Shown here: positions 44,285 through 62,669 of the stretch, piece after piece
How the letters are laid out: every line of letters begins with the position of its first letter
How positions within the stretch are numbered: position 1 is the first letter of the stretch
Source: Syntrophorhabdaceae bacterium
GTDB lineage: Bacteria; Desulfobacterota; Syntrophorhabdia; Syntrophorhabdales; Syntrophorhabdaceae
Reading direction: 5' to 3'
Assembly: GCA_963665295.1 (NCBI GenBank)
Contig: OY762209.1
Coordinates: forward strand, 480,001 to 544,000
DNA: 64,000 nucleotides
The notes under the pieces: generated by a model
Database searches by the model: none
What the model was told of the DNA's origin: nothing
Seen by the model: the letters and a program-made list of their open reading frames with translations, nothing else
Translations under genes and position numbers: made by a program

Positions 44285-44480
44285 GACAAACCTCCTTGTA
44301 TAATCAATTTTGTTAGAGTGGCAACGTCACTCTTTTGTCATTCTATCTAATCAGCAGTTATCCCTGTAATATCGATTAGTTGTCAAATAGCTGACTGTCC
44401 AGTGTATAATACAATTGAAATCTGTCAAGTGGCTTGGAGAGAGAACTCCAATTTTGTTGGGGATTTGAATAGAATGATGT

Positions 44481-45143: not shown

Positions 45144-45145
45144 AG

Positions 45146-45403
45146 ATGTACAGTCCGAAGATTAACGAAGACCTAATCCCCTATCTCTACCGGCTCAGCC
45201 GGCATCTCGGACAGCCAATGACCAGAACGGTGAACTCGATCCTCAAGGAGGCGTTACTCCATTTCAAGGACACCGGAATATTCTCGGAAATCGAAGCGGA
45301 AGAGAAAGCTCTCGAAGAGCTGACCGCCTACTTCAGAAAAGTCACGAGTGGCAGGAAGAAGAAGACCGCCCAGGTTATCGAGCTTCTCAGAAAAATCGCA
45401 TAG
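45146..45403 (+). CDS. Small ribbon-helix-helix-like hypothetical protein
   Basis: RBS; MYSPKINEDLIPYLYRLSRHLGQPMTRTVNSILKEAL. Confidence 0.65.
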   Translation: MYSPKINEDLIPYLYRLSRHLGQPMTRTVNSILKEALLHFKDTGIFSEIEAEEKALEELTAYFRKVTSGRKKKTAQVIELLRKIA

Positions 45404-45834
45404 GAGGTGTGAGGTGATCACTATCACCAGGGAAGAAGTGGAAAGAATCTTTTCGATCTCCACTCATCAAGTGGAAGTGGTGGAGGCGCTTTACCGGCTC
45501 GCGTTCCCAGATTACGACGAGATCATGAAGCTTGACGGTTTCCCGGAAGCGGGAGAGAAACTCTCCAAGCTCATCTGGAACAAGTTTTTTGATTTCGATG
45601 AAAAGCATCACCCGAACGTGATGAAGGGCGGAAGATGGATGAACAACGGCTTCTCAACCAACAAGAAACTTGGCGATTGGGAAGTTGATGTTGCCGGAGT
45701 GAAGAAGATTATGAAGGAGAAAGAGAGTCCGCTTTTCCGGAATTTCTATCGCTGTGCGCAGGACGGTACGCGGTGACAGGAAGAAGAAGACCGCCCAGGT
45801 TGTCCAATCTCTCAACAAAATCGCATAGGAGGTG
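45348..45834 (+). repeat. ~62 bp direct repeats at 45348-45409 and 45773-45834 flanking one gene
   Basis: GTG.CAGGAAGAAGAAGACCGCCCAGGTT...CTCA..AAAATCGCATAGGAGGTG in both copies. Confidence 0.85.
45414..45776 (+). CDS. Hypothetical protein
   Basis: GTG start after GGAGGTG; ORF track 45348..45776. Confidence 0.65.
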   Translation: MITITREEVERIFSISTHQVEVVEALYRLAFPDYDEIMKLDGFPEAGEKLSKLIWNKFFDFDEKHHPNVMKGGRWMNNGFSTNKKLGDWEVDVAGVKKIMKEKESPLFRNFYRCAQDGTR

Positions 45835-45838
45835 AATC

Positions 45839-46057
45839 ATGAAAAAGCGCCGCCGTCAGAAGCCCAAGAAACTCATATGGATATTGGGCGCAGTATCCTT
45901 ATTTCTTCTCGCCGTTATCGCGTTCGGTACGACGATGATATCGTACTCGCTACACGAGATTCTTGTAACCGCTCAGGAAAATATCGCTTCATACGAACCC
46001 GAACACAAGGAACCCACCAAATTCAAAAGCATAGGAGGAATGAAATGGAAGAAATGA
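45839..46057 (+). CDS. Small membrane protein
   Basis: AGGAGGTG RBS; basic N-terminus followed by a hydrophobic helix. Confidence 0.55.
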   Translation: MKKRRRQKPKKLIWILGAVSLFLLAVIAFGTTMISYSLHEILVTAQENIASYEPEHKEPTKFKSIGGMKWKK

Positions 46058-46782
46058 TTATTCATCGGGGAGGAGAGATCGTTACCCGAGAACAGCTTGA
46101 CCTTATCAAGGTGCCGGATGCCACCGATTCATACATCCCGGTATCGCACTACCATCTGGCCGACAAACTGGTCGGCATATCGAAGGATATTCTCCGCGAT
46201 TACGTTTTGGTCGGAGAAAACTACGCCGTGGCCCGGCAGGGGAACCAGATGTTCGCGGCGCTCAAGTTCCAGCGGGACGAGTCGGACATGGCGCTCTCTA
46301 TCGCCTTCCGGAATTCTTACGACCGCTCGATGAGTCTCGGGATCGCTATCGGCGCTTCGGTCTTCGTCTGCGATAACTTGGCCCTTCAGGGCGACATCGT
46401 CATCATGAGGAAGCACACCAAGAATGTCTGGAACGAACTCGAAGATTTGGCGATTGCGACGCTCTACAAATCCCAGAAGACCTTTGAGCAGATCGTGGCC
46501 GACGCGGCCCTGCTCAAGAAGCAGCGCCTCAAGAACGACGAGGCGTTCATGTTCATGGGGATGCTCTTCGGCTATCACATCGTGAGCCCGAGACAACTCT
46601 CGATCCTCAAGGAAGAATGGCTTAGGCCGTCGCATACCGAATTCGAGGAAAGGAACATGTGGTCACTCTTTAACGCGACAACCGAAAGTCTCAAGAGCTG
46701 TCCGCCCGTCACCATCATGGAAAAGCACGGTCAGGCGTACAACCTGCTCACGCAAGGCAAATACCCGGCGCTCACCGCGTAA
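46045..46782 (+). CDS. DUF932/DUF945-like mobile-element protein
   Basis: SYIPVSH, FRNSYDRS, VFVCDNL, RKHT and NMWSLFNATTE motifs; AGGAGG RBS before ATG 46045. Confidence 0.75.
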   Translation: MEEMIIHRGGEIVTREQLDLIKVPDATDSYIPVSHYHLADKLVGISKDILRDYVLVGENYAVARQGNQMFAALKFQRDESDMALSIAFRNSYDRSMSLGIAIGASVFVCDNLALQGDIVIMRKHTKNVWNELEDLAIATLYKSQKTFEQIVADAALLKKQRLKNDEAFMFMGMLFGYHIVSPRQLSILKEEWLRPSHTEFEERNMWSLFNATTESLKSCPPVTIMEKHGQAYNLLTQGKYPALTA

Positions 46783-46812
46783 TCCGATTTCTCGAAATTT
46801 AAGGAGGCCGTC

Positions 46813-47220
46813 ATGATCGTATCACGGGAAAGGGCGGAACTTTCTTCGCCCGCAGCAGCGGCAGGCCTCCTTAGGAAACTTCTCCGAAAGGAAGACTGCC
46901 TATCGAAAGACAGAGAGCATTTCTGGGTCATCACGCTCAATACCAGAAACCGGGTAAGGTTTGTGGAACTCATAAGCCTTGGGACGATGAACACCAGCGT
47001 CGTAGCCCCGAGAGAGATCTTCCGAAGGGCCATAATCAGGGGAGCGTCCTCGATCATACTGGGACACAACCATCCTTCGGGAAACCCTGAGCCCAGCCAA
47101 GAGGATTTGGAGATTACCAGAAGGATTGTGGAAGCCGGAAAGATCGTCGGGATCGAGGTGGTCGACCATATCATCATCGGCAAAAGCGATTATTCCTTCA
47201 AAGAAAAGGGGCTCATTTAG
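46813..47220 (+). CDS. radC: RadC-like JAB domain protein
   Basis: REHF, PREIF, HNHPSGNPEPSQED, VDHIIIG. Confidence 0.9.
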   Translation: MIVSRERAELSSPAAAAGLLRKLLRKEDCLSKDREHFWVITLNTRNRVRFVELISLGTMNTSVVAPREIFRRAIIRGASSIILGHNHPSGNPEPSQEDLEITRRIVEAGKIVGIEVVDHIIIGKSDYSFKEKGLI

Positions 47221-47229
47221 GAAAACAAT

Positions 47230-47424
47230 ATGGAAAAGAAAACACCCGTTATCAAGAAGAAAATACTCACTACCAAAGACCTTGCGCTCCTCTTGGTGGG
47301 AACCACCATCAAGCTGGACTGCGGGCATGAGGCTACCATTGGACATAACTTCGCCAATACGGTAATTATCTTGTCCGAGGGCGGAGGAAAGATTAAGACC
47401 CTCTGCCATAATTGCGGATATTAG
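47230..47424 (+). CDS. Small zinc-binding hypothetical protein
   Basis: LDCGH...CHNC. Confidence 0.6.
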   Translation: MEKKTPVIKKKILTTKDLALLLVGTTIKLDCGHEATIGHNFANTVIILSEGGGKIKTLCHNCGY

Positions 47425-47433
47425 GAGGAAGAG

Positions 47434-47583
47434 ATGTTTGTCATTCTCAGTTGATTGGATCATTCAGACATCGGCCTTATCCTCCACCAGGACGGAAAGG
47501 TCCGGCTGTTTGAGACCCACGCCGAAGCGGAGAGCTTCGCGGAGTCGGAGCTTGCCGCGAATTGGCAAATCATTGAATTGTAA
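47434..47583 (+). pseudogene. Small ORF with in-frame TGA at codon 7
   Basis: AGGAGG RBS; MFVILS*LDHSDIGLILHQDGKVRLFETHAEAESFAESELAANWQIIEL*. Confidence 0.5.
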
Positions 47584-47748
47584 TTTTGGGGGAAGAACCG
47601 AAACCGGATCTTCCCCTCTCATTTTGCCCAAAGCATACCTGAATAAGCACCTGATCTGATGCATAGACATATTACCCATCCCTTTTGGCCCGATAGAATC
47701 AACTGCCAGTCGCCGAATTTCTTGAAATCGGCTTAAACAAGTAATTAA

Positions 47749-47883
47749 TTTGGGGGAGAAGCATTTTCTGTGGTCCGTCGGCGAAGCACGACAGAACCCC
47801 AGCGCAGGGCTTTAACCGCAAAAGCAAAACAATGACGGTATAAACCCCTGCGCTGGGCTTCGCCACAGAAAAGCATCCCCCCG
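47749..47883. other. Long imperfect inverted repeat directly upstream of a Replic_Relax-like gene
   Basis: GGGGG..GC.TTTTCTGTGG..GGCGAAGC..CCCAGCGCAGGG / CCCTGCGCTGGG-CTTCGCC-ACAGAAAAGC.TCCCCC. Confidence 0.7.
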
Positions 47884-47895
47884 TATTTTTGATTT

Positions 47896-48570
47896 ATGAT
47901 ACTCAGTAGAGCAACCATCCGGGAGTTCATTTCCAAAATGGAATGGGCCACCGCCGCCAACATCTGCTTTCTCCTTTCCGGAAAGAGGAAGCGGAGAGAC
48001 TACGCCATTGTCGCCGCCGAACTTAACAGCATGTGCCGGACCAAGCGCAAGGAAATCCGTCTTAAAAAACTCAACCACGAATTCTATACCTGCTATGCTC
48101 TGGCCACCAATCCGAGAACAACCCTCAACCACAACCATGTCGAACACGACATCAAGCTCCGGAGCTGTTTGGGAAGATACTTCTATCTTTGCGGCCATGG
48201 ACTCATGGAATACCTCTCCATCGAAACCTTTGCCGACGCGGTCCTCAAGCTCAGTACCGGAGACCTGTATTTCGAATTCGACAGCGGACATATGGGAAGG
48301 AAGCAACTCAAGACCAAGATTATGACGCATTACACAGGCAAAGGAGCCTTCAGAGTTGTCTTCTGGACAGGGACCGCCGAATACGCCCACTGGAAGAACG
48401 CGGCAACGATTAAATGCCTGGAACGGAACCGTCTCAACCTGTTATTTCAAATCACGAGAAAGGTACTCAGGGAGAAACCGAACCGGGTGTTGGGGGCTTC
48501 GTATCACGACTATCTGGAAACCGGGAGACTGCATACCCAGAAAGGGTCCTCCATTTGGACCAATGAGTGA
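47896..48570 (+). CDS. Replication-relaxation (Replic_Relax)-like wHTH + PD-(D/E)xK protein
   Basis: HVEHDI, ADAVL..LYFEFDSGHM...KI..Y...FRVVFWT parallel the motifs in 56250..57155. Confidence 0.55.
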   Translation: MILSRATIREFISKMEWATAANICFLLSGKRKRRDYAIVAAELNSMCRTKRKEIRLKKLNHEFYTCYALATNPRTTLNHNHVEHDIKLRSCLGRYFYLCGHGLMEYLSIETFADAVLKLSTGDLYFEFDSGHMGRKQLKTKIMTHYTGKGAFRVVFWTGTAEYAHWKNAATIKCLERNRLNLLFQITRKVLREKPNRVLGASYHDYLETGRLHTQKGSSIWTNE

Positions 48571-48827
48571 AATCGTCCTACTGCTCTCAACTGTGACTAC
48601 GAACCAGATGGAGTAGTCGTCGGTAACGGCTTTTGAATGAAAGCCGGAAACACCGCCTAACTCAATAGAGGGAGGCTATGCGAAATGCTGATGGTGACGT
48701 GACTAAGCTGGCGACGGGTCGGGCTCTCTCGGTTTCACGCGACGGGTCCGGTCTTAAAGGACGAAACGTTTCGTTCCCCTCTCGGCCATAATGGTCGGGA
48801 GGGGACAAACCCTTGCGAATAATGAAT

Positions 48828-49403
48828 TCAGTCAACCTTTGTGGTTACAAGTTTCCTGATGAATGACATGAGATCATCGTAGTCTTTCCTTCTCTTACCA
48901 TATAAATCCTCGTAAATCAAAATCTCGGAAAAAGCCGAAAACGCCGCACCAGCTCTCATAAATTCCTTCAGCTTTTCACTACTCAGATTATCAATGTATT
49001 CCTCGTAATCAGAAATTTCGGGGTAAGGCAGATCCTTGATAGCAGCGACGAAAGAGCCTCCAAAATACATATTGAAGGCCCATAGTTTCCAAGTGTTCCG
49101 GCATTCAATTTTGTATCTGTCGTATGCTTCGATTATTCCCAAAAACCAGTCAATAATGGGCGCATCGGCATCAATTTCCCTTTTGAGGCAATCGACGAGA
49201 TACACCATGCTCAGCCATTCAATGAATTCAATCACGGTTCCCCTGAAGTTGATTTTGTCTTTATCCTTGTATGCGCTCTGGACCAGTGATTTGTTGGCGA
49301 AGGCTTTATCAACTGTCGGGTCTTCTAAGATCGGGGTTGAGGCTACCGCTTGGATAACATTGTAATACCTGCCATACATCTCATGTATGAGTTTTCTCTC
49401 CAT
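48828..49403 (-). CDS. Hypothetical protein
   Basis: 191-aa ORF with GGAGG RBS. Confidence 0.65.
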   Translation of the reverse strand: MERKLIHEMYGRYYNVIQAVASTPILEDPTVDKAFANKSLVQSAYKDKDKINFRGTVIEFIEWLSMVYLVDCLKREIDADAPIIDWFLGIIEAYDRYKIECRNTWKLWAFNMYFGGSFVAAIKDLPYPEISDYEEYIDNLSSEKLKEFMRAGAAFSAFSEILIYEDLYGKRRKDYDDLMSFIRKLVTTKVD

Positions 49404-49528
49404 TGTCCACCCTCCGGATCAATTTGCAAAAAGATAATTATATACCGTACGTATTAAATGTCAACCAGAAATTGTAGACAGCTAACTGCCGAAAAGAGAA
49501 CAATAAGCGCCTTTACTGAATTATTGTC

Positions 49529-49557
49529 TTGACAAAGATTCTTATTGTATAGATAAT
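49529..49557 (+). promoter_or_regulatory. Sigma70-type promoter
   Basis: TTGACA-N17-GATAAT. Confidence 0.7.
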
Positions 49558-49649
49558 AGTGTATAGTATTATTTTAACATTATTAAGTGTAGGGGCCACA
49601 GCGGATTCGATTAGAGCGCCGATTCCATCGGCAAACGCAGGTGCAAAAG

Positions 49650-49880
49650 ATGAAGGCGGAGAAGAGAACAGAGATCATGAAGACTCTGGAATTTTTAAAA
49701 GTAGCAGAGCCGCTCACCATCGGAGCAGCCATCAAAAAACTCTACCAGGAGAATTTTGTCTACAGGAATGAAGCATCAATCATCAACAACGACCGAACCG
49801 GTAATGTTAACCCTCCTCTCAAACTACTGATAGCAGGCAGCCAAAATCTTCCGCCAACAGGCAAGACTTTGGCTGCGTAG
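49650..49880 (+). CDS. Possible small protein ending in LAA
   Basis: ORF MKAEKRTE...PPTGKTLAA*; start uncertain. Confidence 0.35.
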   Translation: MKAEKRTEIMKTLEFLKVAEPLTIGAAIKKLYQENFVYRNEASIINNDRTGNVNPPLKLLIAGSQNLPPTGKTLAA

Positions 49881-50006
49881 GTCCCTATAAACCACTCCTT
49901 GCCTTTATTGCGGAAAAGCTCTCAGCAATTGCCGCTTTCACGCAGTATCGACCAGGAAACATTTAATATCCTCAACACCATAATAAAAAGATAGGAGGTG
50001 TCCCTT

Positions 50007-50222
50007 ATGTCGCGCTGGTGGCATGCTAACGAAATCGCAAAAGAATACAATCGTACTCGCCGCACCATCTACCGCTGGCTTGAAGAAGGATATATCAAAG
50101 GCAAAAAGATAAAGAGCAACTGGCTCGTCCCTGACGAAGAGGTCAAAAAGATAATAAGGGACCCCGATGATGACGGGAGCGATCCCAGCTTTAACAAGCC
50201 TTCACCAGATTCAACTACGTAG
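50007..50222 (+). CDS. Excisionase/MerR-like HTH DNA-binding protein
   Basis: AGGAGGTG RBS; ANEIAKEYNRTRRTIYRWLEEGYIKGKKIKSNWLVP. Confidence 0.8.
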   Translation: MSRWWHANEIAKEYNRTRRTIYRWLEEGYIKGKKIKSNWLVPDEEVKKIIRDPDDDGSDPSFNKPSPDSTT

Positions 50223-50237
50223 CAATACTCGCCGTTA

Positions 50238-50278
50238 GCCCCCCAGCCCCCATTTGCAAGGGACTGGGGGGCTTTTTT
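50238..50278 (+). terminator. Intrinsic terminator
   Basis: GCCCCCCAGCCCC...GGGACTGGGGGGC followed by TTTTTT. Confidence 0.75.
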
Positions 50279-50417
50279 GTCGAACGTACCACCAAACCTT
50301 CGCAACGTTTAGAAAAACTTTTGTGCGACACCCTACGACACCCTACGACAACCTTCCTGGTAACCGCATTATCCTCGTGGGAAAATCTCACATAGAAACA
50401 CTCTCAAGGAGGACGAC

Positions 50418-50837
50418 ATGGACTCACTTGTACACGAAACAAATGGAAGACTGGTTATGCTCGACCTTTGGGGATGCGATTTTGAGACGCTCAATAATTT
50501 CGCATCTCTTTCGAGTGAGGCAAAAGTGGCAGCCGAAAAGGCGGGAATGAATGTTCTCGCAATTTCCGTTGTGCCTTTTGTGCCGCAGGGGTACAGCATA
50601 GTCTTGACTCTAAGTGAATCACACCTCACTATCCACACCTCTCCCGAACAGGGGTATGCGGCTATCGACGTCTTCACCTGCGGGCACGGAAAACCTCACG
50701 TTGCCGCGAACCATTTACTGGCAATTCTCAAACCCGGCCAGATTCTTGCGAAAGTAATCCAAAGAGGGGAGCAGGCTCCGGCAGGCGCAGAGGGCTTTAA
50801 TGGAAATTTTCAGTCCGGGAGCACCCGCCATGCTTAG
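50418..50837 (+). CDS. speD: S-adenosylmethionine decarboxylase proenzyme
   Basis: FVPQGYS...LSESHLTIHTSPEQGYAAIDVFTCG, including the E-SH autocleavage site. Confidence 0.88.
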   Translation: MDSLVHETNGRLVMLDLWGCDFETLNNFASLSSEAKVAAEKAGMNVLAISVVPFVPQGYSIVLTLSESHLTIHTSPEQGYAAIDVFTCGHGKPHVAANHLLAILKPGQILAKVIQRGEQAPAGAEGFNGNFQSGSTRHA

Positions 50838-51399
50838 TGGCCAACTCACTCGCTTGAGACCTCTGGAAGATAAGGACTTTGCCTACTACTACTCGTGCAT
50901 GGACAATCCCGACTTGGCCGGAGTTGTCTTGGGAGACGCAGTCCCCTCTCCAAGGGAACTGACCAAGAAGCTGCTTCAAAAACAGGACGACCTCCTCCTT
51001 ACGGTAGAAACCTTATCGGGTACGCCAGTAGGTTTTTGCTTTCTCCGCAACATGCACCCCATTCACCGCTTTGCCGAGCTTGAACAATTCTTTATCGGAA
51101 ATCCCAGAGACCGCCGTCGTGGACACGGAGAAGATGCCATCCGGACGCTCACTCGCTACTGCTTTAGCATCCTCGGACTCAATCGAGTCTGGCTCATAAC
51201 CTATGCTTACAACTTCTCTGCAATACGCTTCTATGAAAAATGCGGTTTCTCGAAAGAAGGCGTGCTCAGACAGATTCAATTCACAGGAAGGGAGTATCAT
51301 GACGGGGTCACCATGGCCATCTTGCAGCAGGACTGGATTGCTATGCATAAAAGACACCGGTCACCGCACGAACCATCACCGATTGGGGTATCCCGTTGA
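50800..51399 (+). CDS. GNAT acetyltransferase (RimJ/RimL/SpeG-like)
   Basis: LRPLE, RRRGHG acetyl-CoA motif, LGLNRVWL, YNFSAIRFYEKCGFSKEGVLR. Confidence 0.85.
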   Translation: MEIFSPGAPAMLSGQLTRLRPLEDKDFAYYYSCMDNPDLAGVVLGDAVPSPRELTKKLLQKQDDLLLTVETLSGTPVGFCFLRNMHPIHRFAELEQFFIGNPRDRRRGHGEDAIRTLTRYCFSILGLNRVWLITYAYNFSAIRFYEKCGFSKEGVLRQIQFTGREYHDGVTMAILQQDWIAMHKRHRSPHEPSPIGVSR

Positions 51400-51812
51400 C
51401 GGATCAGCAAATCAACCTTTTTCGATCCAAGCAGTCGGACGATTGGGCCACCCCCAAGTGGCTCTACGACCAACTTGACGCGGAATTCCATTTTGACCTC
51501 GACCCTTGTCCCCTCAACCCTACCTTTGACGGGCTTAAAATCCCCTGGTGCGGAAACGTGTATGTAAACCCTCCGTACAGCAGGGTCCGCGAATTTCTCG
51601 CCAAAGCCCACGAGGAACTTAGGGCCGGACGAGCCCGGACGGTCGTGTTCCTGGTGTTCGCGAACACTGATACGGATTGGTTTCACACCTATGTCTACCA
51701 TCAGGCTGAGATTCGATTCCTTAGAGGCCGGATCAAATTTGTGGCCCCGGGCAAGAACAACTCCGCCATGCGGCCAAGCATGCTCGTTATCTTCAGAAAC
51801 AGAATCTCCTAA
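51396..51812 (+). CDS. Phage-type Dam-like N6-adenine methyltransferase (small)
   Basis: DDWATP, FDLDPC, VYVNPPYS, TDTDWFH, IRFLRGRIKF. Confidence 0.88.
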   Translation: MTDQQINLFRSKQSDDWATPKWLYDQLDAEFHFDLDPCPLNPTFDGLKIPWCGNVYVNPPYSRVREFLAKAHEELRAGRARTVVFLVFANTDTDWFHTYVYHQAEIRFLRGRIKFVAPGKNNSAMRPSMLVIFRNRIS

Positions 51813-51961
51813 TCACCGAAAAGAACATTCCCAAAACACGGCTGACGAAACATTTTTTGAAAGGTCGTATGACACCGAGGATCATTGTGTTCCATCGTGA
51901 TATTCACGCCCAGACCGTCCCTGTGGGACAATCTAATCATAAACAGACAGAGGAGGTGCCC

Positions 51962-52531
51962 ATGGAGATTTCAAGAAATGCTTATCCGTACCAGACACTG
52001 GCGATTTTCATCGACTACCACAACTTCGAGGCTTCTTTGAGGGACGAGGGCCTGCAGGTAGACCTCTTGCCCTTGAGGGAGTACCTGGCCGGAGGCAGGC
52101 AACTGCTGGAGACATTCGTGTTTGTCGGCTTCAACCCCAACAACGCTCACGAAGACGGACAGCTCCATCGGTTCTTGCGAGTGAACGGTTTTCTCGTACG
52201 GACTAAGCTGGCCAAGGTAAGGCCTGATGGTTCCTTGAAATGTGATCTCGATATCGAGATGGCTTTGTCTGTGGTCGATTACGTGACTCGGAACAGACTG
52301 GACACCGTGCTCCTCGTGACTGGCGACGGGGACTTCTCTCCCCTTGCCTCGTGGCTCCGGATGAGAGGCGTCCGGGTAGAAGTGGCTTCGCTAGAACGCA
52401 GTATGTCCCATGAGCTTAAGGAGTCGGCAAACGGCTACATTGACCTCCGTGAAGCCATCGAAGAAATCGAGGCAGGACGGGGAGAACTCATAAGAGAGGA
52501 GGTGAGAACCTATGGCAACGGCAATTATTAA
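51962..52531 (+). CDS. NYN/LabA-family PIN-like ribonuclease
   Basis: IFIDYHN, KCDLDIEMAL, LVTGDGDFSPL...GVRVEV...LKESANGYIDL; GGAGGTG RBS before ATG 51962. Confidence 0.85.
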   Translation: MEISRNAYPYQTLAIFIDYHNFEASLRDEGLQVDLLPLREYLAGGRQLLETFVFVGFNPNNAHEDGQLHRFLRVNGFLVRTKLAKVRPDGSLKCDLDIEMALSVVDYVTRNRLDTVLLVTGDGDFSPLASWLRMRGVRVEVASLERSMSHELKESANGYIDLREAIEEIEAGRGELIREEVRTYGNGNY

Positions 52532-52718
52532 TGGACGGCGGGTTGACATTCCCTCCACGGCAACGGATGACGATATTCGTCAGGCCGGAGGAATTCGTCC
52601 CGAGAGGACCCTCATCAAACGGGAGAGGCACGGGAACTTCGTGATCCAGCGCGGGTCAAGGACGAATGTCAAAGAAGGTGATGTGTTTGTTGATTCACCG
52701 AAAAGGATCAAGGGTTAA
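52512..52718 (+). CDS. Ubiquitin-like (beta-grasp) protein with C-terminal Gly
   Basis: 68 aa; AIINGRRVDI...VKEGDVF..SPKRIKG*; lies immediately upstream of E2-like and E1-like genes. Confidence 0.7.
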   Translation: MATAIINGRRVDIPSTATDDDIRQAGGIRPERTLIKRERHGNFVIQRGSRTNVKEGDVFVDSPKRIKG

Positions 52719-52770
52719 ATCACAACGGAGGGCCGGGCAACCCTGGCCCTCCCCTTAAAGGAGGAGACGT

Positions 52771-53298
52771 ATGGCAGAATTTTTGAATTCGTTGTTCAGA
52801 GGATTATTCGGCAGTCCGTCTGAAGCACCCCGGCAGGACACTGCGTTACCCGGAAGACATCCGGTCCGTTCCATCCGGAACGAAAGGCTTCTCAATGAGA
52901 TCATGATGATCGCCCCGAGATTCAGCCAGAACGGAGGGGTGTACTACGACGAGCACAACTTCGACTGGATCATGATTCCCAAGTACGCCCTGCCGGAACG
53001 GTGGGAGGAGAGATGGTGTAAGCTCCTTATTATACCCCCCGCAGGCTATCCGAGCATGCCTCCTATCGGCTTTTATCTCAACCAAAAATTTCACCTCAAA
53101 ACGGGTGGCCACGACCCTCACAACACCAGCACCGCTTACCATGGGGCACCCGACCTTCTGCATAGTGGCTGGCACTGGTACTGCGTTACCGTGGCAGACG
53201 GGCCGGGCGGCTGGCAGCCATCGGTCGATTACCGCGAAAAGGACAATCTCTGGACGTTTCTTAATATGGCCAGAGAAACCCTTACCAACGACTTTTGA
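52771..53298 (+). CDS. Prokaryotic E2/UBC-like protein
   Basis: WIMIPKYALPERW...LLIIPPAGYPSMPPIGFY...GWHWYC...WQP...DNLWTFL. Confidence 0.8.
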   Translation: MAEFLNSLFRGLFGSPSEAPRQDTALPGRHPVRSIRNERLLNEIMMIAPRFSQNGGVYYDEHNFDWIMIPKYALPERWEERWCKLLIIPPAGYPSMPPIGFYLNQKFHLKTGGHDPHNTSTAYHGAPDLLHSGWHWYCVTVADGPGGWQPSVDYREKDNLWTFLNMARETLTNDF

Positions 53299-53309
53299 AG
53301 GAGGCACAA

Positions 53310-54809
53310 ATGAAATACAGGATCATTCTCACCAAAGGCATGGCGGAGGAGTTGAAGAAGCACCTCCTTACAGACCGACGCAAGGAACAGATGGCTGTCA
53401 CCTTGTGCGGAGTGAACCGCCTCAAGAACGAAACCAGATTACTCGCCAGACACCTCATACTCTTTCCACCCGAGGCGTTCCAAACCCAGTCTTCGGCCTA
53501 CCTCGAACTGGACCAGGGGGTCCAGCGTCAGATTCTTGGATTGGCCGCAGCGGAAGGGCTGTCGCAGATTGATTGGCACAGTCACCCCGGCGACACATCG
53601 TGCATCGGCTTTTCCGGCGTTGACAACCACAATGAAAGTAAGCTCGCGGCCTACCTTCACGAAAAGATCCCCGGTACACTCTACGGGTCCGTGGTAGTGA
53701 ACCGGAACGTCTTCGACGCCAGGATTTGGCAGGTCGAAAAAGAAAGTATCCAGACAAGACCCGTAGAATCGGTTCGGTGGGGGGACTTCAACGATGCAAG
53801 CCCTGTCTCTTCCAGAGGCGCCAGGCCCGAGGCAATCGAGGAACAGTACTCCCGGCAGGTAGCCGCTTTCGGAAGCGTCTTGCAGACGAGGTTGAGGAAA
53901 TGCAAAATCGGGGTCATCGGGGTTGGCGGTTTGGGAGCGGTCGTTGTAGAAATGCTGTCAAGACTTGGCTCTGACACCTGGATGCTTGTGGACGACGATG
54001 TCGTCGAAATCAGCAACCTTAACCGCCTTCCCGGATCGTCCCGCAGAGACGCCTATTACCGGACTTTAAAGGTCAATGTCGCTCAAAGGAATATCACGAA
54101 AGCCAATCCTTACGCCGCCATTACGGTTTTGCCTTTAAGTGTCACAAATGAGAGGGTCGTCCAGTCCCTCAAGTCTTGCGACCTTTTGGTTGTAGCCACA
54201 GACAACAACAGCAGCCGTCTTATCGCCAATCGCCTCGCCGTGCAATATCTCATTCCCCTTATTCACATCGGCGTCAACATCGACGTGGACGATAACAGGA
54301 CCATAACCGACATGAGCGGAGAGTACGTGTTTCCGCCTCTAGGCGAGTGGTGCCTTCACTGCGCCGGGATCATTGATGGTCAGATGGCCGGATGGGAATT
54401 GGCGGATGAAGGGTTGAGGAGTGTGCTTCGGGAGCGGGGATATGTGAAAGACACACCGGCCCCGGCGGTCTATCATCTGAACACCGTGATGGCCGCCCTC
54501 GCGGTGGCGGAGATACACAACTTTGTCTCCTCTTACAAGCCCGTCCGGCGTTACCTTACCTACGATGAACTCAAAGGAGAGCTTCTGCCTCTTGAAGTCT
54601 CGAATGAACTTCGCTGCCCGGTGTGCGACAACGAAGAGGGATATCTCGGCCTTGGGGACCTAGAGCCCTTGCCGGATTATACGGGGAGGACAAGAACGAT
54701 GCCAAGTACCGATGCGTTTGACGGAGACGGAGAGATGCGCATTTTGCCGGTCAACAATCCCGACAATTCCAACGAAGTTGAGCTTGTGGTCAAAGAGGAG
54801 ACCTTGTGA
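53310..54809 (+). CDS. JAB peptidase - ThiF/E1-like adenylyltransferase fusion
   Basis: N-terminal E...HSHP.....FSGVD JAB motif; YSRQ, GVGGLG, DDDVVEISNLNR, ATDN..SR, CLHC and CPVC. Confidence 0.88.
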   Translation: MKYRIILTKGMAEELKKHLLTDRRKEQMAVTLCGVNRLKNETRLLARHLILFPPEAFQTQSSAYLELDQGVQRQILGLAAAEGLSQIDWHSHPGDTSCIGFSGVDNHNESKLAAYLHEKIPGTLYGSVVVNRNVFDARIWQVEKESIQTRPVESVRWGDFNDASPVSSRGARPEAIEEQYSRQVAAFGSVLQTRLRKCKIGVIGVGGLGAVVVEMLSRLGSDTWMLVDDDVVEISNLNRLPGSSRRDAYYRTLKVNVAQRNITKANPYAAITVLPLSVTNERVVQSLKSCDLLVVATDNNSSRLIANRLAVQYLIPLIHIGVNIDVDDNRTITDMSGEYVFPPLGEWCLHCAGIIDGQMAGWELADEGLRSVLRERGYVKDTPAPAVYHLNTVMAALAVAEIHNFVSSYKPVRRYLTYDELKGELLPLEVSNELRCPVCDNEEGYLGLGDLEPLPDYTGRTRTMPSTDAFDGDGEMRILPVNNPDNSNEVELVVKEETL

Positions 54810-56302
54810 TATTCGAGATGCTCGAAAACGCTGTCATCAGAGGTCTCAATTCTCTCACCTCGCCTAAGCGGGTGAAGAAATCGAGGGAGCCCTCCCGGAT
54901 ACTCATCGGGAGGGCCGCCCACCCTTATCATCCGGAACACTGGGAAGAAATATCGCTCGACGTCGAAAACCTTCTCCGTCACCTGTACTGCTTGGGCGGT
55001 ACGGGCATGGGTAAGACGAAACTGCTGGAGTTTATTATCCAACGTATAATCCTCGCCCACCACGGTTTTGCCCTTATCGATCCGCACGGCGATCTTACGG
55101 AGAACATCATCAATTTTCTCTGTCACAACAAGACTCAATTCGAGATAGACGAATTGGGAGAGCGGGTCATCCTCATTGAACCCTTCGACCGGGAATGGGC
55201 CATCGGATTCAACCCCTTGGACTCGGATGAACCATTCGCCGCGTCTCTCGGTCTCGTGGATATCTTCCGCCAATTTTGGGGCGACAGTTATCGGGGACCG
55301 AGGATGGACGAGCTTCTCAGGAACAGTCTCGCGACCCTCTCTGAGAACAAGCTGACCCTTCTTGAGACAAGACCTTTACTCACCCATCCAGAATTCAGAG
55401 CAAGGCTCGTTAAGAACGTGTCCTTCGGCGAAGTGCGGGATTACTGGAATCATCGGTATAATCCTCTTTCGGAAAAAATGCAGGCCATGTACCGGGAACC
55501 CGTGCTCAACAAAATCACCGCATTCATAACGGACCCGACCATTTACCGAATTCTATGCCAGACAGAAAGCACGGTGAATTTCCGTCGGGCCATGGATCAA
55601 GGGAAATGGATTCTCCTCAATCTCAGCAAAGGACATCTGGGCGAGAACGTGAGGCTTCTCGGTACCCTGTTTCTTTCCAAGCTCAAACAAGCCGCGTTCT
55701 CCAGAATCGATATACCGGAAGAGAGCAGACGTCCGTTCTTCGTCTTTGCCGACGAATTTCAGAGCTTCATGGGGGATGCGGGGACAATTGAAACAGTACT
55801 CTCAGAAAGCAGAAAATTCCGTTTGGCCATTTTTATGGCAAATCAGAATTTGGGGCAGATACCTGCGCAGCTGCGATCAGCCATTTTAGGGAATGTTGGA
55901 GTGGAAATTTTCTTCCGTCTCTCCAACCAGGACAGCGTTTTAGTCTCTTCGGAAATGAGCCACGGCGACAAGCATCTCATCGAAAAGCGGCTGATCGATT
56001 TCAAGGTTGGAGAAGCGTATCTCAAGGTCAAGGGCCAGAAAGCGCGGCTCTTTAAGACTATCCATGTGCCTTCGCTCAGAGTTCCGGAAAGAATGATTGA
56101 ACCACTGAGGGTAGCCTCTTTCCGGAACTGGGCCGCGCCGGTCAGCAAAGTGGAGGAAGAGATCGCGGAGCGGAGAGGAATGTGGGAAGAGAGCGGGATA
56201 GACAACGATTGCTCCCCAAGGGAAACGCAAGGGGCAATTGTAAGGACCGATGATGTTCTTCCTGTCCGCGACTCCTTCGAGGAAGGACAAAGTGAATGGT
56301 GA
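54806..56302 (+). CDS. VirD4/TraG/TrwB-like coupling ATPase
   Basis: RHLYCLGGTGMGKT, IDPHGDL, GFNPL, FADEFQSF, SESRKFRL..ANQNLGQ, AILGNVG..IFFR. Confidence 0.82.
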   Translation: MIFEMLENAVIRGLNSLTSPKRVKKSREPSRILIGRAAHPYHPEHWEEISLDVENLLRHLYCLGGTGMGKTKLLEFIIQRIILAHHGFALIDPHGDLTENIINFLCHNKTQFEIDELGERVILIEPFDREWAIGFNPLDSDEPFAASLGLVDIFRQFWGDSYRGPRMDELLRNSLATLSENKLTLLETRPLLTHPEFRARLVKNVSFGEVRDYWNHRYNPLSEKMQAMYREPVLNKITAFITDPTIYRILCQTESTVNFRRAMDQGKWILLNLSKGHLGENVRLLGTLFLSKLKQAAFSRIDIPEESRRPFFVFADEFQSFMGDAGTIETVLSESRKFRLAIFMANQNLGQIPAQLRSAILGNVGVEIFFRLSNQDSVLVSSEMSHGDKHLIEKRLIDFKVGEAYLKVKGQKARLFKTIHVPSLRVPERMIEPLRVASFRNWAAPVSKVEEEIAERRGMWEESGIDNDCSPRETQGAIVRTDDVLPVRDSFEEGQSEW

Positions 56303-57155
56303 GACCAGAACCAGTAAGTGGCAGAGGACCAAAAATCCGAAGCCCATCTTTCTTCAGGAAAGAGATCAGGAGATAGTCGCCAGGGTCTATGACTTTGGCT
56401 TCCTCACCAGGCAACAAATACAGCGCCTCATTGATTTCAACTGTACAACCAGGGCCAACATACGACTCCGGAAGCTTTTTGATCACGGTTACCTTTTAAG
56501 GCGATTTCTTCCGGTAGTAAAAGGATCATCTCAGGCTCTGTACTTCCTGGGTCCCAAGGGCATAGACCTTGTCTCGGAAAGAACGGGAATCGATGCGGCT
56601 TTAATCAAGAAAAGGCAGGGGAACCATTACGAGCGCAAGGAGTTGTTCCTTGACCATGATCTTCTTCTCAATGATGTGAGGATCGGCGTCTATGATGCTT
56701 TGAAGAAATCTCCCGGCACGGAACTTGACCATTGGGTGAATTACACCGATTGTCTTCAGGAGTGGAATGTCCTCAATCCGAAATCGGGCCGCCAAAACAA
56801 AGTGGCCCTCAGACCTGACGGATATTTCCGCTACTTCTCTGCAGACAAGCTCTTCGGATGTTTTGTGGAGGTGGACAGATCCACTATGAGCAACAGCCGG
56901 TTTCAGTCCAAGGTGAAGCTGTATCTTGAATATATCCGCTCGGGACTCTATCCGGCAAAATTCGGGCTCCAATTCTTCCGGGTTTTGGTAGTGACTGAAA
57001 CAAGGCAGCGCCTTCTTAATCTCAAGTCAGCCACTGAGCAACTCACCGACAAGGTATTCTGGTTCGCGCTGGCCAACAACCTCGTGGAGGGAAATGTCTT
57101 CGAGTCCATCTGGGCGAGACCGGGCAAACCGGGAACCTTCAGTCTGCTGGAGTGA
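56250..57155 (+). CDS. Replication-relaxation (Replic_Relax) family protein
   Basis: LQERDQEI..FLTRQQI..RLRKL wHTH; LDHDLLLND; LRPDGYF..FVEVDRSTM..KVKLY..FRVLVVT. Confidence 0.82.
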   Translation: MMFFLSATPSRKDKVNGETRTSKWQRTKNPKPIFLQERDQEIVARVYDFGFLTRQQIQRLIDFNCTTRANIRLRKLFDHGYLLRRFLPVVKGSSQALYFLGPKGIDLVSERTGIDAALIKKRQGNHYERKELFLDHDLLLNDVRIGVYDALKKSPGTELDHWVNYTDCLQEWNVLNPKSGRQNKVALRPDGYFRYFSADKLFGCFVEVDRSTMSNSRFQSKVKLYLEYIRSGLYPAKFGLQFFRVLVVTETRQRLLNLKSATEQLTDKVFWFALANNLVEGNVFESIWARPGKPGTFSLLE

Positions 57156-57158
57156 GTC

Positions 57159-57842: not shown

Positions 57843-58196
57843 ATGGAATTCTTGACGGTTGACGAGATTGCACGGATGCTCAAAGCGAGTCGCGAGTTCG
57901 TTTACAAAAACAGGAGCCTCTTCGGAGGCATCAAAGTGGGAAGGCTCGTGAGATTTCCAAAAATAATTTTTGAGAAGATAATCGAGGAGGTGATAGGAAG
58001 TGGTGGAGAAACACGGCAACAAGTGGAGGTACGATTTTCTGAAGGACGGGACGAGGTACAGAGCGGGAGGATTCAGGAGCAAAGCCGAAGCTATCGAAGC
58101 CGAGGCAAGAGCAAGAGCAGGAGCAAAATCGATAAATACGGACTTGCTAAAGCTTATGAACTCAAGGCTGGAGGATATCCAGATTCGGAGGACTAA
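57843..58196 (+). CDS. Excisionase-like HTH protein
   Basis: GGAGG RBS; MEFLTVDEIARMLKASREFVY...IKVGRLVRFP; overlaps the integrase 5' end. Confidence 0.75.
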   Translation: MEFLTVDEIARMLKASREFVYKNRSLFGGIKVGRLVRFPKIIFEKIIEEVIGSGGETRQQVEVRFSEGRDEVQSGRIQEQSRSYRSRGKSKSRSKIDKYGLAKAYELKAGGYPDSED

Positions 58197-58344
58197 ACTC
58201 CATTTCTGGGAAAACAACAAACTATTCAAAGAACTGATGCAGCGTTGGGGGAACCTCCCCAAGATAACCACAGATGATGTGGAAAAATATCTTAACGAAA
58301 TAGCCAAGAAGTCTAAGCCTATGGCAAACAAATATCTTAGACTA

Positions 58345-60019
58345 GTCTCCATCCGGAAACCCCCATTTTCGAGCAAGCCCCCGGTCTATTGCCAGGGTGG
58401 GCGCTCAGCCGTCCGGTGATTCCGTCATCCCTTTTCGGATTTCACTCCATCGGGCCCGTTTTCCCCAGAGTCAGGGCGTAGCTCACCCTTGTCCCCTTGA
58501 GAAAATAGTCTTCTCTCATCATGAGGCCATCCTGATGCGGGCGATGACGAGAAGATTGTAGGAGACGATACTGGAGAGCACGTACCGGGCAAACCCTTCC
58601 CATCCTGTCCACGTCGCCCGGTCAAGGCCGAAGGACCGTTTCAATGTGGAGATGCCTGCTTCAATGCCCGCCCGGAAGTTCCTGAGCTTCTTGTAGACCC
58701 AGGTGCTCTTTGCCATGTCGAGGATGGAGAGCCCCCTCTTTCTGGCGAAGACGGCATCCTTGATATGGTTCTCCTTCGCATAGGCGAGGTTCTCTTTTGA
58801 GGCAAAGCCCCCGTCGGCCGTCACTTGGCGAGGCATCTTCCCGTACCACTCCTTATGCTGCTCAAGGAGGGATTGATACTGGTCGGTATCAGCGGGGTTG
58901 CCCGGGACGATGAGACACCCGATGATCATGGTGGAGCGTCCTCCTGTAAGGAACACCTTATGGCCGTACTCGGTATCCCTCCTCCCCTTCACGATGATGT
59001 CCGTGTGGTCCTCGAAGAAAGAGACGATCTTCTCGGAGGCGGGGACCTTCTCGTTCTTGAAGACTCTCCGGTCGGTCTGGTCGATGACCTTCCCGAGTAT
59101 GCCCACGGCGCGTTCAAGTCTCCGGGCAAGCTCGCGGGCAGCGAAGGTGTCCATGAGATTATCGCCCTCGTAGGGGATGAGTTCGGTGATCGCCTCTTCG
59201 GCATATCCCTTCACGAGATTCGCATAGTGGAGGAGGTCCTTGTAGGCGCTCTTCCGTGTTCTGTCGTTCTTTGCATTGAGGATCGTCATGAGCTTCTTCT
59301 TGGCTACTCTCCTATGGTCACTGTAGGCATACCGGGGCACGGGAGCAAGCTCCTTCCCTTCGGTGAGTAACCGGGTAATGACGCGGATGCCGTCCACGAT
59401 GAGCGATGAGTCGGTGGGGTGGTGGATGTTGGTCTCCACCGTGGTGGAGTCTACTCTTACCACGCGGCCGGATTCTATCTTCTCCTTTACCGCGTAGCGG
59501 TTTACTTCCTGAATGATCGCCTCCCAGGTTTCTTCCCGTATCGCCTTTATGTTCTCCTGAAGGACCGATTTGGAGGGGTACTGTCCCATCTCCAATCTCG
59601 CGAAACTGCGGAGTGCGTCGGAGTCTTCCATGTGGAAGGCAAGCTCTTCATACGTCAGTTGGCGGTACTGCTTGAGTATGGCGATCCGGAGCACCTGTTC
59701 CGCGGTGAGCCCCTCTCTTCCCGTGTCGGTGCGACAGAAGGAGGTCATATCCCCGAAGACCAGATCCAGAAGGCGGGGATTGGCGTCTATGACCTTTGAC
59801 ATCTCCTGAAGCTCCTTTACAATAGAATGGCGCATCATGGGGGAGAAGAGACCTGTCTGGGGGTTGAATTTCTGGCGCATTCCGGAATCCTTTCTGAAGG
59901 CGTTAGGTAATGATATTGCCTTGTTACAACCATATTGTACCTCAGATGAGGGGCGAAACTCCAGGGGAATGTGGGGATTTGGGCAAATATTTCATGGGGT
60001 TAGGTTTCCGGATGGAGAC
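58345..60019 (-). mobile_element. IS element (IS5/ISNCY-like DDE) with 17 bp terminal IRs and TAGACTA target duplication
   Basis: IRs GTCTCCATCCGGAAACC / GGTTTCCGGATGGAGAC; TAGACTA at 58338-58344 and 60020-60026. Confidence 0.9.
58519..59880 (-). CDS. DDE transposase (IS5/ISNCY-like)
   Basis: RVDSTTVETNIHHPTD, EYGHK, TADGGF, RAGIEAGISTLKRSFGL. Confidence 0.9.
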   Translation of the reverse strand: MRQKFNPQTGLFSPMMRHSIVKELQEMSKVIDANPRLLDLVFGDMTSFCRTDTGREGLTAEQVLRIAILKQYRQLTYEELAFHMEDSDALRSFARLEMGQYPSKSVLQENIKAIREETWEAIIQEVNRYAVKEKIESGRVVRVDSTTVETNIHHPTDSSLIVDGIRVITRLLTEGKELAPVPRYAYSDHRRVAKKKLMTILNAKNDRTRKSAYKDLLHYANLVKGYAEEAITELIPYEGDNLMDTFAARELARRLERAVGILGKVIDQTDRRVFKNEKVPASEKIVSFFEDHTDIIVKGRRDTEYGHKVFLTGGRSTMIIGCLIVPGNPADTDQYQSLLEQHKEWYGKMPRQVTADGGFASKENLAYAKENHIKDAVFARKRGLSILDMAKSTWVYKKLRNFRAGIEAGISTLKRSFGLDRATWTGWEGFARYVLSSIVSYNLLVIARIRMAS

Positions 60020-60218
60020 TAGACTAATCAAGGCACTCTTTAATCACGGGATAAAGAGAAACTGGTTCATATTTAACCCATGCCACGGCATAGCGCCTTT
60101 CGGTATCGAGAAAAGAAAGAAGTATATCCCAACTTTTGAGGACATCGAGAAAGTAATCTCTCTTGCCAAAGAGGAACAGAGGAACTATCTCCTGGTGGTG
60201 GCTCTTACAATGGCTAGA

Positions 60219-62139
60219 CCGAAGTTCCCCCTGTGAAATCCCCCCAATATCACTCTATCCCGTTGAAATGACGGGAATAGGGTGATAATCATATCTTCTA
60301 CTTGTTGCCATGTAATAGTGCATTATGTACTTGACATGTAGGTAAGCTATTTGCTATATATGTTCCATGTACATCGAAAGCATCCCCAACCGCAACTCCC
60401 GGCCCGCCATCCTCTTGAGGGAGGCATGGAGGGAAGGCAAAAAGATAAAGAAGAAGACAGTCGCAAACCTCACTGATTGGCCGGAAGAGAAGATCGAGCT
60501 CTTGAGGCGTGTATTGAAAGGGGAGTCTCTCGTCTCTCCGAAGGAAGCCTTTAAGGTTGAGCAGTCTCTCCCCCACGGCCATGTGGAGGCCATACTCGGG
60601 ACAATAAAGAAGCTTGGCCTTGATACGGTCATTGCCTCGAAGCCTGGAAGGGAGAGAGACCTCGTAATCGCCATGATCGTGGAACGCCTCATCCACCCCT
60701 CATCGAAATTAGCAACTACGAGGCTCTGGCATACTACTTCGGTGGCGGAGGAACTCTCGGTTGCAGATGCCGATGAGGACGAACTCTATGATGCCCTGGA
60801 CTGGCTTTTGGCAAGACAGGAGCGGATCGAGAAGAAGCTGGCGAATAAGCACCTTACCGAGGGCTCGCTCGTGCTCTACGATGTGACGAGCAGTTACTAC
60901 GAGGGCCACACCTGTCCCCTTGCGCAGTTCGGCCATGACCGGGATGAAAAGGGAAAGAGGATCATCGTCTATGGAGTACTCACCGATCACGAAGGCCGAC
61001 CTGTTGCAGTTACCGTCTATCCGGGGAATACGGGCGATCCCTCTACCATTCCCGACCAGACGGCAAAGCTCAAAGAAAGATTCGGTCTCGATCACCTCGT
61101 CCTCGTGGGCGACAGGGGCATGCTTACGGAGACACAGATTACAAAGATAAAGGAGATGCCCGGCATAGGGTGGATATCGGCCCTCAGGTCTTCCGCCATA
61201 CGCGAGCTTGTGGGACAGGGGAGCATCCAGATGTCCCTCTTCGATACCCAGGACTTTGCGGAAATCACCTCTCCCGAGTATCCGGGGGAAAGGCTCATCG
61301 CTTGCTTCAACCCCCTTCTTGCCGAAGAGAGAAAGAGGAAAAGAAACGCGCTCCTCGATGTGACGGAAAAGAAGTTGTCCTCCATTGTACGGGCGGTCGG
61401 GAGAAGGACAAGGACGCCTCTTTCCGCAGCGGAGATAGGGAAGAAAGTCGGCGCGGTAGTCAACGATCACAAGATGGCGAAGCACTTTATCCTTACCATC
61501 GGAGACGGGTCCTTCTCATTCGCCCGGAACGAGGAGTCAATCACCGAAGAAGAAGCCCTCGACGGGATCTATGTGATCCGTACGAGTGAACCAGCCCTTC
61601 CTCCCGCCGATGTGGTACGGAACTACAAGAACCTTGCCCGGGTAGAGCGGGCCTTCAGGACCTTGAAGGGCATCGATCTTCTCGTCCGTCCCATTCACCA
61701 CCGTACCGAGGATCACGTGCGAGCCCACATCTTTCTCTGCACCCTCGCCTATTACGTAGAGTGGCATATGAGGGAGGCCCTTACGCCGCTGCTCTTCGAC
61801 GATGAGGAGCTTCCCCTCTCACGAACGACGAGAGACCCGGTAAAGCCCGCGGAGTCATCTTCTTCCGCAAAGAAAAAGAAGACCACCAAGCTCACCCCTG
61901 ACGGCCTTCCCGTCCAGAGCTTCCGTACCCTCCTTGCCGCACTGGGGACCCGATGCAAAAACCGGTGCAGGATGGTTTTGGACTCCATGGCCCCGGCCTT
62001 CACCCTTCTTACTGATCCGACACCTCTCCAGGCCCGCGCCCTTGCCCTCCTCGGACTGTAGCCAGTAACGGGAAATCAATTTCTGCCATAATCATTGGAA
62101 TATCAAGGTGATGGGTTAATATTGGGCGGGGAACTTCAG
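60219..62139 (+). mobile_element. IS1634-family element with GCTAGA target duplication
   Basis: IRs CCGAAGTTCCCC / GGGGAACTTCAG; GCTAGA at 60213-60218 and 62140-62145. Confidence 0.9.
60367..62061 (+). CDS. IS1634-family transposase
   Basis: LYDVTSSYYEG, FGHDRD, VGDRGM, DGIYVIRT, YKNLARVERAFRTLK, VRAHIFLCTLAY. Confidence 0.9.
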   Translation: MYIESIPNRNSRPAILLREAWREGKKIKKKTVANLTDWPEEKIELLRRVLKGESLVSPKEAFKVEQSLPHGHVEAILGTIKKLGLDTVIASKPGRERDLVIAMIVERLIHPSSKLATTRLWHTTSVAEELSVADADEDELYDALDWLLARQERIEKKLANKHLTEGSLVLYDVTSSYYEGHTCPLAQFGHDRDEKGKRIIVYGVLTDHEGRPVAVTVYPGNTGDPSTIPDQTAKLKERFGLDHLVLVGDRGMLTETQITKIKEMPGIGWISALRSSAIRELVGQGSIQMSLFDTQDFAEITSPEYPGERLIACFNPLLAEERKRKRNALLDVTEKKLSSIVRAVGRRTRTPLSAAEIGKKVGAVVNDHKMAKHFILTIGDGSFSFARNEESITEEEALDGIYVIRTSEPALPPADVVRNYKNLARVERAFRTLKGIDLLVRPIHHRTEDHVRAHIFLCTLAYYVEWHMREALTPLLFDDEELPLSRTTRDPVKPAESSSSAKKKKTTKLTPDGLPVQSFRTLLAALGTRCKNRCRMVLDSMAPAFTLLTDPTPLQARALALLGL

Positions 62140-62595
62140 GCTAGAGTGAGAGAGATTAACAACCTCAAATGGGAAGATGTTAACCTGGATGAAGGATACC
62201 TTGTCCTCAAGACGCGAAAAGCCAAGAACTCTGACGTGGTTTCGAGGAAAATTCCTTTAGTGCCGACTATTAAGAAGATACTCGAATCAATGGATAAGGG
62301 AAACGAGTATGTCTTTGTTAACCCTGTTACCAAAACCAGATACGATTACAGGGACAAGTTTCTCCCGAACCTTTGCAGGAAAGCGGAGGTACGGCCTTTC
62401 ATGTATCACTCACTGAGGCACTACGGAGCATCAAAACTCGCTCACTCTGGCGTACCCTTGACAGACATTCAAGAGCTTCTTGGCCACCAGAGAGCCACTA
62501 CCACCGATATATACCTTCAGAGCTTGAAAAACAGTCTGAGGGAATCCATTAACAAACTCGACTTCCCCCAAAATTTCCCCCAAGACTAAAAGAAA

Positions 62596-62669
62596 TGCGC
62601 CCAGCAGGAATCGAACCTGCAACCTTTGGATTCGAAGTCCAGCACTCTATCCAATTGAGCTATGGGCGC
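62596..62669 (-). tRNA. tRNA-Arg(TCG); CCA not encoded; probable integration site
   Basis: GCGCCCATAGCTCAATTGGATAGAGTGCTGGACTTCGAATCCAAAGGTTGCAGGTTCGATTCCTGCTGGGCGCA folds as a cloverleaf; its 3' end lies 6 bp from the integrase stop. Confidence 0.95.

Follow-up and report, generated by a model that had tools for sequence, protein, structure and literature searches.

A mobile SpeD clade paired with a GNAT acetyltransferase in a defence island of a Syntrophorhabdaceae bacterium, with an orphan-type adenine methyltransferase appended: a candidate decarboxylate-then-acetylate module

The closest described relatives of the three genes considered here come from separate systems. The class 1b AdoMetDC of T. 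maritima (TM0655; structures 1tlu and 1vr7) relies on S63, H68 and C83 for processing and catalysis, and its Trp70 has what we take to be a role in SAM binding. According to excerpts of Li et al. 2023 (PMC10407285), SpeDA and SpeDC are SpeD homologues without SpeE, apparently horizontally moved, that were found by screening for SpeD in the absence of SpeE, and by its sequence SpeDA can hardly be told apart from AdoMetDC. The spermidine N-acetyltransferase SpeG is known from V. cholerae and E. coli, with roles for its allosteric and acceptor residues set out in part of PMC13212360. M.Phi93DAM (Phi93_04), one of the T1-Dam-like orphan methyltransferases of family PF05869, was tied to G6mATC by SMRT and DpnI/DpnII tests, as a section of PMC4190342 reports. 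Phage thymidine hypermodification, as excerpts of Lee et al. 2021 (PMC8989533) describe it, has decarboxylase and GNAT steps that act on amines carried by the DNA, the amine being unmasked and then acetylated by a GNAT, and uses a 5-hmdU kinase, an aGPT-Pplase2 transferase and PLP decarboxylases.

We considered a window of 64,000 nucleotides (positions 480,001 to 544,000 of contig OY762209.1, assembly GCA_963665295.1) of a Syntrophorhabdaceae bacterium. A preliminary description of it had singled out a trio of coupled genes, and open reading frame calls and family profiles bear this out: three overlapping genes on the + strand between 50418 and 51812, sharing 8 bp (speD/GNAT) and 4 bp (GNAT/MTase), the TTG start of the MTase gene overlapping the GNAT stop. 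The trio and its immediate upstream region contain the following features:

49998..50222, + strand: HTH_17/excisionase-like gene
50237..50279, + strand: terminator-like hairpin with a U-run (intrinsic type), z -3.4, 3' of the upstream HTH gene
50326..50345, + strand: a pair of exact 10-bp tandem repeats, 5' of speD
50418..50837, + strand: speD; PF02675, E 6e-29, 100.9 bits (cut-off 25); TIGR03330, 104.7 bits (cut-off 75.65)
50830..51399, + strand: GNAT; PF13302; best solved relatives SpeG, E 3e-16
51396..51812, + strand: MTase; PF05869, E 1e-22, 81.1 bits (cut-off 28.1); NPPY at residues 58-61

Since the hairpin separates the HTH gene from speD, speD probably begins its own transcript, and the tandem repeats are a possible regulator site. 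An in-frame ATG at 50800 lies upstream of the GNAT Met at 50830, at which homologues begin. The stretch 43500-58370 is covered with 0 differences by contigs of two public runs, which may be the source sample. The reading that we tentatively prefer is that of a mobile decarboxylate-then-acetylate module to which an ordinary orphan m6A methyltransferase has been appended in one subclade.

SpeD belongs to the class 1b pyruvoyl family, both by its profile scores, which exceed the cut-offs, and by the SpeD fold of its model, which superposes on the T. maritima enzyme with Z 19.8 and rmsd 2.6 over 116 aligned residues (about 40% identity). In a tree of 68 rows (17 first matches, 16 loci, P0288, and the short ones of the 38 best among 150 representatives), it falls in a divergent clade of 19 rows (support 98/92) that is separate from the housekeeping speD of the order, and its nearest named relative comes from a Syntrophorhabdus MAG. 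S68, H73 and C88, equivalent to S63, H68 and C83 of T. maritima, are invariant in all 14 core clade rows, and F54 and the ribose-binding equivalent E77 (T. maritima F49 and E72) are also kept. In contrast, the clade substitutes the otherwise conserved H12, H52, K53 and W75 positions, and the window SpeD differs from TM0655 in the replacement of H47 and of the first-strand His. Residue 75, which corresponds to Trp70, is Ser in 14/14 core rows and aromatic in 177/177 others (145/160 domains in the unfiltered set); the clade member P0166 keeps an aromatic residue there. Two further members, P0162 and P0163, have no Glu preceding the cleavage Ser and may be degenerate or further diverged.

The clade is thus found without the aromatic residue at the Trp70 position that is a trait of "bona fide AdoMetDC", and residue 6 possibly compensates. 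This residue is F, Y or H in 18/18 clade rows, compared with 61/303 others that have an aromatic residue 75 and with 3/4 outside rows that have a non-aromatic one, in counts from which rows without column 12 were dropped and in which kin are not independent; in the window SpeD it is His, not Phe. The model superposes on human AdoMetDC 1jl0 (Z 10.0, rmsd 2.5, 105 aligned) with its residue 4 on human residue 5, and on 1msv with its residue 3 on human residue 4, so that residue 6 would fall on human F7 if the alignment is ungapped; F7 forms one wall of the AdoMetDC substrate site, according to a part of PMC5201418. An initial reading of Ser75 as a loss of SAM binding was softened because of the 18/18 pattern at residue 6. 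SAM use is plausibly kept through this predicted eukaryote-like wall, and we consider SAM the probable substrate from the residues retained. Such a clade would lend itself to asking whether the Trp70 of a homodimeric AdoMetDC can be exchanged for an F7-type wall.

The substitutions at the four conserved positions would also suit a SpeD that has become a neofunctionalised amino-acid decarboxylase, for Arg or another amino acid, with the GNAT acetylating the amine product, no part played by SAM and the MTase as a passenger. The window SpeD resembles SpeDA and SpeDC in lacking a SpeE partner and in having apparently moved horizontally, and according to the excerpts of PMC10407285, homologues with no SpeE are often Arg or Orn decarboxylases. 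The Gln/Thr/Phe/Tyr set of SpeDC, diagnostic of ODC, was however unseen in the central motif of SpeD, at positions that are uncertain, being drawn from a figure legend in the same excerpts. The candidate "gamma" prolines P56 and P76 are both present (which of them is diagnostic is uncertain), which would argue against a change of substrate, as do the retention of F54 and E77 and the fact that the host already owns a pyruvoyl ArgDC. Unlike SpeDA and SpeDC, as far as the excerpts describe them, the window SpeD lies outside a polyamine gene cluster, a comparison made by signature and context. We regard an amino-acid decarboxylase as unlikely.

The island speD is the only speD in the genome, which is 98% complete. 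As the preliminary description had noted, the window carries no spermidine synthase (0/41 scanned window ORFs match such a family). Canonical SpeE was not found genome-wide (0 matches to PF17284, a profile that matched 7/14 controls), and PF01564 has two matches in the genome, both outside the window, in long fusion proteins of 783 aa and 541 aa, one of them with an MFS match. The host has a polyamine operon of its own:

4.903-4.908 Mb of the genome: pyruvoyl ArgDC (PvlArgDC), agmatinase, CASDH-like and CASDC-like genes (the last assigned from sequence); no speD

In five relatives an ordinary speD follows the same regulator gene in the polyamine operon, and no speD remnant was found at the corresponding host site (G000:4903197-4903541); this gap and the CASDH/CASDC-like genes further down the operon have the appearance of a pathway swap. 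Judged from its gene content, the host appears to make spermidine by a SpeD-independent route without dcSAM, such as the CASDH/CASDC pathway covered in the excerpts of PMC10407285. With this route and no canonical SpeE, any dcSAM would be an orphan, lacking a canonical consumer in the host, and to this extent the preliminary description is supported.

The GNAT has the RimJ/RimL/SpeG fold, and its closest solved relative is SpeG, tied with a Bacillus-type AAC(6') GNAT. Tyr135 (the SpeG catalytic Tyr134) and Glu83 (E84-like) are invariant in 20/20 rows. It differs from SpeG, as that enzyme is described in part of PMC13212360, in that the positions matching E33, E34, E72 and E75 are non-acidic, the allosteric-loop region is non-acidic in the 20 rows, and only E84 is clearly kept of the acidic set E33, E34, E37, E41, E72, E75 and E84; its NCBIfam SpeG score is 64.9 against a cut-off of 218. 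By these sequence signatures it falls outside canonical SpeG, and the earlier label of SpeG/RimL-like stands for the fold but not for most of the polyamine-binding acidic residues. Prediction of a SpeD2+GNAT complex gave a score of 0.15. The C-terminal tails of the GNATs P0021 and P0033 resemble the N-terminus of close MTases, possibly through a small duplication.

These data also bear on the idea that dcSAM is consumed by an aminopropyltransferase encoded elsewhere than in the trio, for example the two long SpeE-domain (PF01564) proteins of the host, with the GNAT trimming polyamines like SpeG. Functional SpeD and spermidine acetyltransferases are encoded in phage genomes, according to part of PMC9992855, which lends the idea some precedent; the two host proteins have no PF17284 domain, however, the host has the CASDH/CASDC route, the SpeG acidic residues are mostly missing, and one operon that both makes and destroys spermidine would be futile, which leaves this possibility quite doubtful.

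The pairing of speD with the GNAT is found beyond the window. In the metagenome locus L091, the two genes are adjacent and overlapping in the DNA itself. Among 11 speD relatives (53-76% identity) and 19 GNAT relatives (45-60%), five exact longest-contig sizes with matching source are common to both sets, compared with a mean of 0.045 under a jitter null in which five was reached in 0/20,000 simulations; from these identical sizes and sources we infer that speD and GNAT relatives share contigs, and the conserved unit looks like a SpeD+GNAT pair. A sigma54 activator gene, with a -24/-12 box some 55 bp 5' of speD, is present in both clade metagenome loci (L091 and L092). The activator genes lie at L092:2266-3210 and L091:3-809; the complete one codes for 315 aa with AAA+ and HTH only and no sensor domain, and that of L092 stands back to back with a divergent NB-ARC gene. 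Ten other speD loci have no GNAT on the speD strand but have one on the opposite strand, about 8 kb away in nine of them, and two phage speD neighbourhoods contain no annotated MTase or GNAT.

The whole trio appears to recur more narrowly. P0033, a clade GNAT, and P0044, one of the six closest MTases (83%), share a contig size of 4,768 bp and a source (null P ~0.007), and three GNATs bear tails like that of the window GNAT; on these two grounds the trio probably recurs in a small close subclade, there being about 5-6 close relatives of each gene. By contrast, four deeper speD+GNAT contigs (8026, 7765, 2474 and 2006 bp) showed no MTase among the best 120 of 451 matches, a word-limited search that covers these contigs incompletely. 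A 1,421-bp size match of the MTase P0079 was set aside, as its source differs and the chance expectation is 0.45. Synteny, which the preliminary description had put forward as its own check, therefore extends to speD and GNAT and probably, in the small subclade, to the trio, while MTase relatives occur without either gene in the 85 viral loci; its hypothesis is weakened and not refuted.

Clade members are scarce in the collections searched. In viral contigs, a single-protein query returned 0 relatives of the clade speD and an alignment query found 25 ordinary speD; none of the best 80 of 554 matches in genome contigs exceeded 49%; and the best 80 metagenome matches included two clade loci. No clade speD turned up in 95 further genomes of the order, in 400 genomes sampled from the phylum, or in classes of 2, 9, 83, 68, 10 and 4 genomes. 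Searches with the GNAT gave only distant matches in viral contigs and none in plasmids at 1e-15. This rarity, and the fact that close relatives could merely share an element, would suit unrelated cargo that was inherited together within one family of elements, without a common pathway. That account is nonetheless very unlikely in our view, as the pair persists at 50-60% identity across different settings (a sigma54 activator in L091 and L092, an HTH gene here) and SpeD and the GNAT both carry clade-wide fixed changes.

By family, the third gene encodes an orphan phage-type adenine N6-methyltransferase (PF05869; PADLOC oMTase; phrog_111). It is 44% identical to M.Phi93DAM (62/140 columns), has the same size and a single NPPY motif, and differs in sitting behind speD-GNAT and in lacking a 10-residue stretch after DPCP, a loss common to stand-alone viral relatives. 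N58, P59 and Y61 are invariant in 102 rows. Within the alignment of 102 relatives, columns conserved to at least 80% are not systematically altered in the window MTase and the six relatives closest to it, and subclade-specific residues sit at variable positions. The model (pLDDT 89) matches the folds of CAPAM, DIMT1/KsgA, EcoDam, Erm and M.TaqI, led by CAPAM at Z 9.9 (rmsd 3.4 and 137 aligned for the top match) with EcoDam at Z 8.6; the top rows are all methyltransferases and no spermidine synthase is among the fold matches listed. Neither PF01564 nor PF17284 matched the protein, PF05869 being the only match at E up to 0.01. Among 85 viral loci of MTase relatives (retrieved through MTase queries, with a few contigs counted twice; 71 of the loci include 1.2 kb or more of upstream DNA), none gave a match to a speD or GNAT profile at E 0.01. 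In plasmids, the leading regions are enriched for orphan MTases, as part of PMC11541004 reports. We consider it very likely that the MTase has m6A activity.

The core proposal of the preliminary description was that the MTase-like enzyme moves aminopropyl onto adenine, with acetylation to follow. In the form considered here, the trio would be a DNA modifier in the close subclade, on a conjugative defence island: the NPPY enzyme would move a three-carbon amine onto adenine N6, as aminopropyl from dcSAM supplied by SpeD or as aminocarboxypropyl that SpeD decarboxylates once DNA-bound, and the GNAT would cap it to give acetamidopropyl-adenine. The tight coupling of all three genes, the orphan status of dcSAM, the shared contig of P0033 and P0044 with the handful of close relatives of each gene, and a GNAT without the polyamine glutamates of SpeG are in its favour, and thymidine hypermodification provides a loose precedent for the chemistry (PMC8989533, PMC13458397). 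None of the scanned window ORFs matched the 5-hmdU kinase, aGPT-Pplase2 or PLP decarboxylase families. Use of dcSAM by an NPPY MTase is not known to us. The proposal is highly improbable, because the MTase would need to have changed and the comparison with a demonstrated G6mATC methylase, the conserved columns, the fold matches led by adenine N6-methyltransferases and the viral loci show no sign of change, and the deeper pair contigs add to the case against it. If true, it would show a DNA adenine MTase transferring aminopropyl for the first time.

The decarboxylate-then-acetylate module that we prefer would work as follows. SpeD, its processing residues being intact, would cleave itself to a pyruvoyl enzyme and probably decarboxylate SAM in a pocket with a eukaryote-like wall, the N-terminal aromatic residue standing in for Trp70. 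The dcSAM would be left as an orphan that the host does not use for spermidine, and the coupled GNAT may acetylate a primary amine, which could be the product of the decarboxylase or a polyamine. The net effect might be a one-way inducible sink for SAM and amines in conflict or stress, damping for example SAM-dependent restriction or host growth; this is the weakest step, suggested by the sigma54 control in relatives and by the defence-island setting. The MTase, in all likelihood an ordinary orphan m6A methylase added downstream in one subclade, would protect the DNA of the element. SAM depletion and amine handling, which had been offered as alternatives to aminopropyl-adenine, fit the data better than it does, the sink role itself being conjectural. 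As counterpoints, SAM depletion would also starve the MTase and the type III Mod of the island itself; and dcSAM inhibits MTases, which makes the coupling of a dcSAM-making operon to an MTase odd.

A SAM sink of the present kind, if true, would be an anti-restriction or dormancy route chemically unlike the phage SAM lyases. No description of the SpeD+GNAT pair or of the trio was found in the literature listings searched, which did not extend to Iyer et al. 2013. The parts are known; what appears new, on sequence grounds, is that a mobile SpeD clade, uncoupled from spermidine synthesis, has its substrate wall remodelled and a GNAT of its own as partner.

The trio lies within a tRNA-Arg-bounded island of about 68 kb that is full of defence systems. 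A 43-bp duplicate of the tRNA-Arg 3' end (G000:474681-474723) lies some 5.3 kb beyond the left edge of the window. PADLOC detected AbiE, type III RM, a DrmD-like helicase, SIR2-HerA, TmtA and a short pAgo pair on the island, of which the main features in the window are:

892-23231: stacked defence genes, namely AbiEi/ii, type III Res/Mod, DrmD-like SNF2, SIR2-HerA, TmtA-like, and short pAgo with REase partner
51962..54809, + strand: NYN nuclease, 68-aa ORF, Prok-E2_E and JAB-ThiF(E1), consecutive, 3' of the trio
54806..57155, + strand: coupling-protein-like ATPase and Replic_Relax protein, island transfer module
58000..62589, + strand: tyrosine integrase, seemingly cut into pieces by two IS elements (Pfam match on the 3' piece only)
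62596..62669, - strand: tRNA-Arg(TCG), right island end

Neither the speD clade nor the relaxase was detected in the 95 further genomes of the order, which points to accessory cargo. The two IS elements in the integrase are different and multi-copy (11 and 6 other copies among the matches listed), and their apparent interruption of it means that the island may be immobilised. GATC is mildly under-represented in the island (0.76 vs 0.93), and GC3 is higher in the MTase gene (0.67) than in speD (0.52) or the GNAT gene (0.57), differences too weak for inference.

The row of genes from 51962 to 54809 resembles a bacterial ubiquitination-like module, presumably reminiscent of the Bil/Bub anti-phage systems; its 68-aa ORF has no Pfam match and may be ubiquitin-like, judging from the neighbouring genes. 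A 4,646-aa ORF (28682-42622, - strand) has Peptidase_S74 near the C-terminus as its sole Pfam match and adjoins a 1,013-aa ORF (25577-28618) with a weak TSP1-spondin match. A tmRNA suspected at 49.6 kb was rejected. Divergent near-consensus sigma70 promoters (12/12 and 11/12) occupy 49437-49557, between the ORFs at 48828-49403 (- strand) and 49641 (+ strand). More integrase-like ORFs were seen at G000:477013 and 479532. DUF932 and RadC genes lie at 45832-47220 (+ strand), and a partial DNA match to this region at G000:3,236,118, beside a copy of the tRNA-Arg 3' end at 3,233,514, suggests a second related island.
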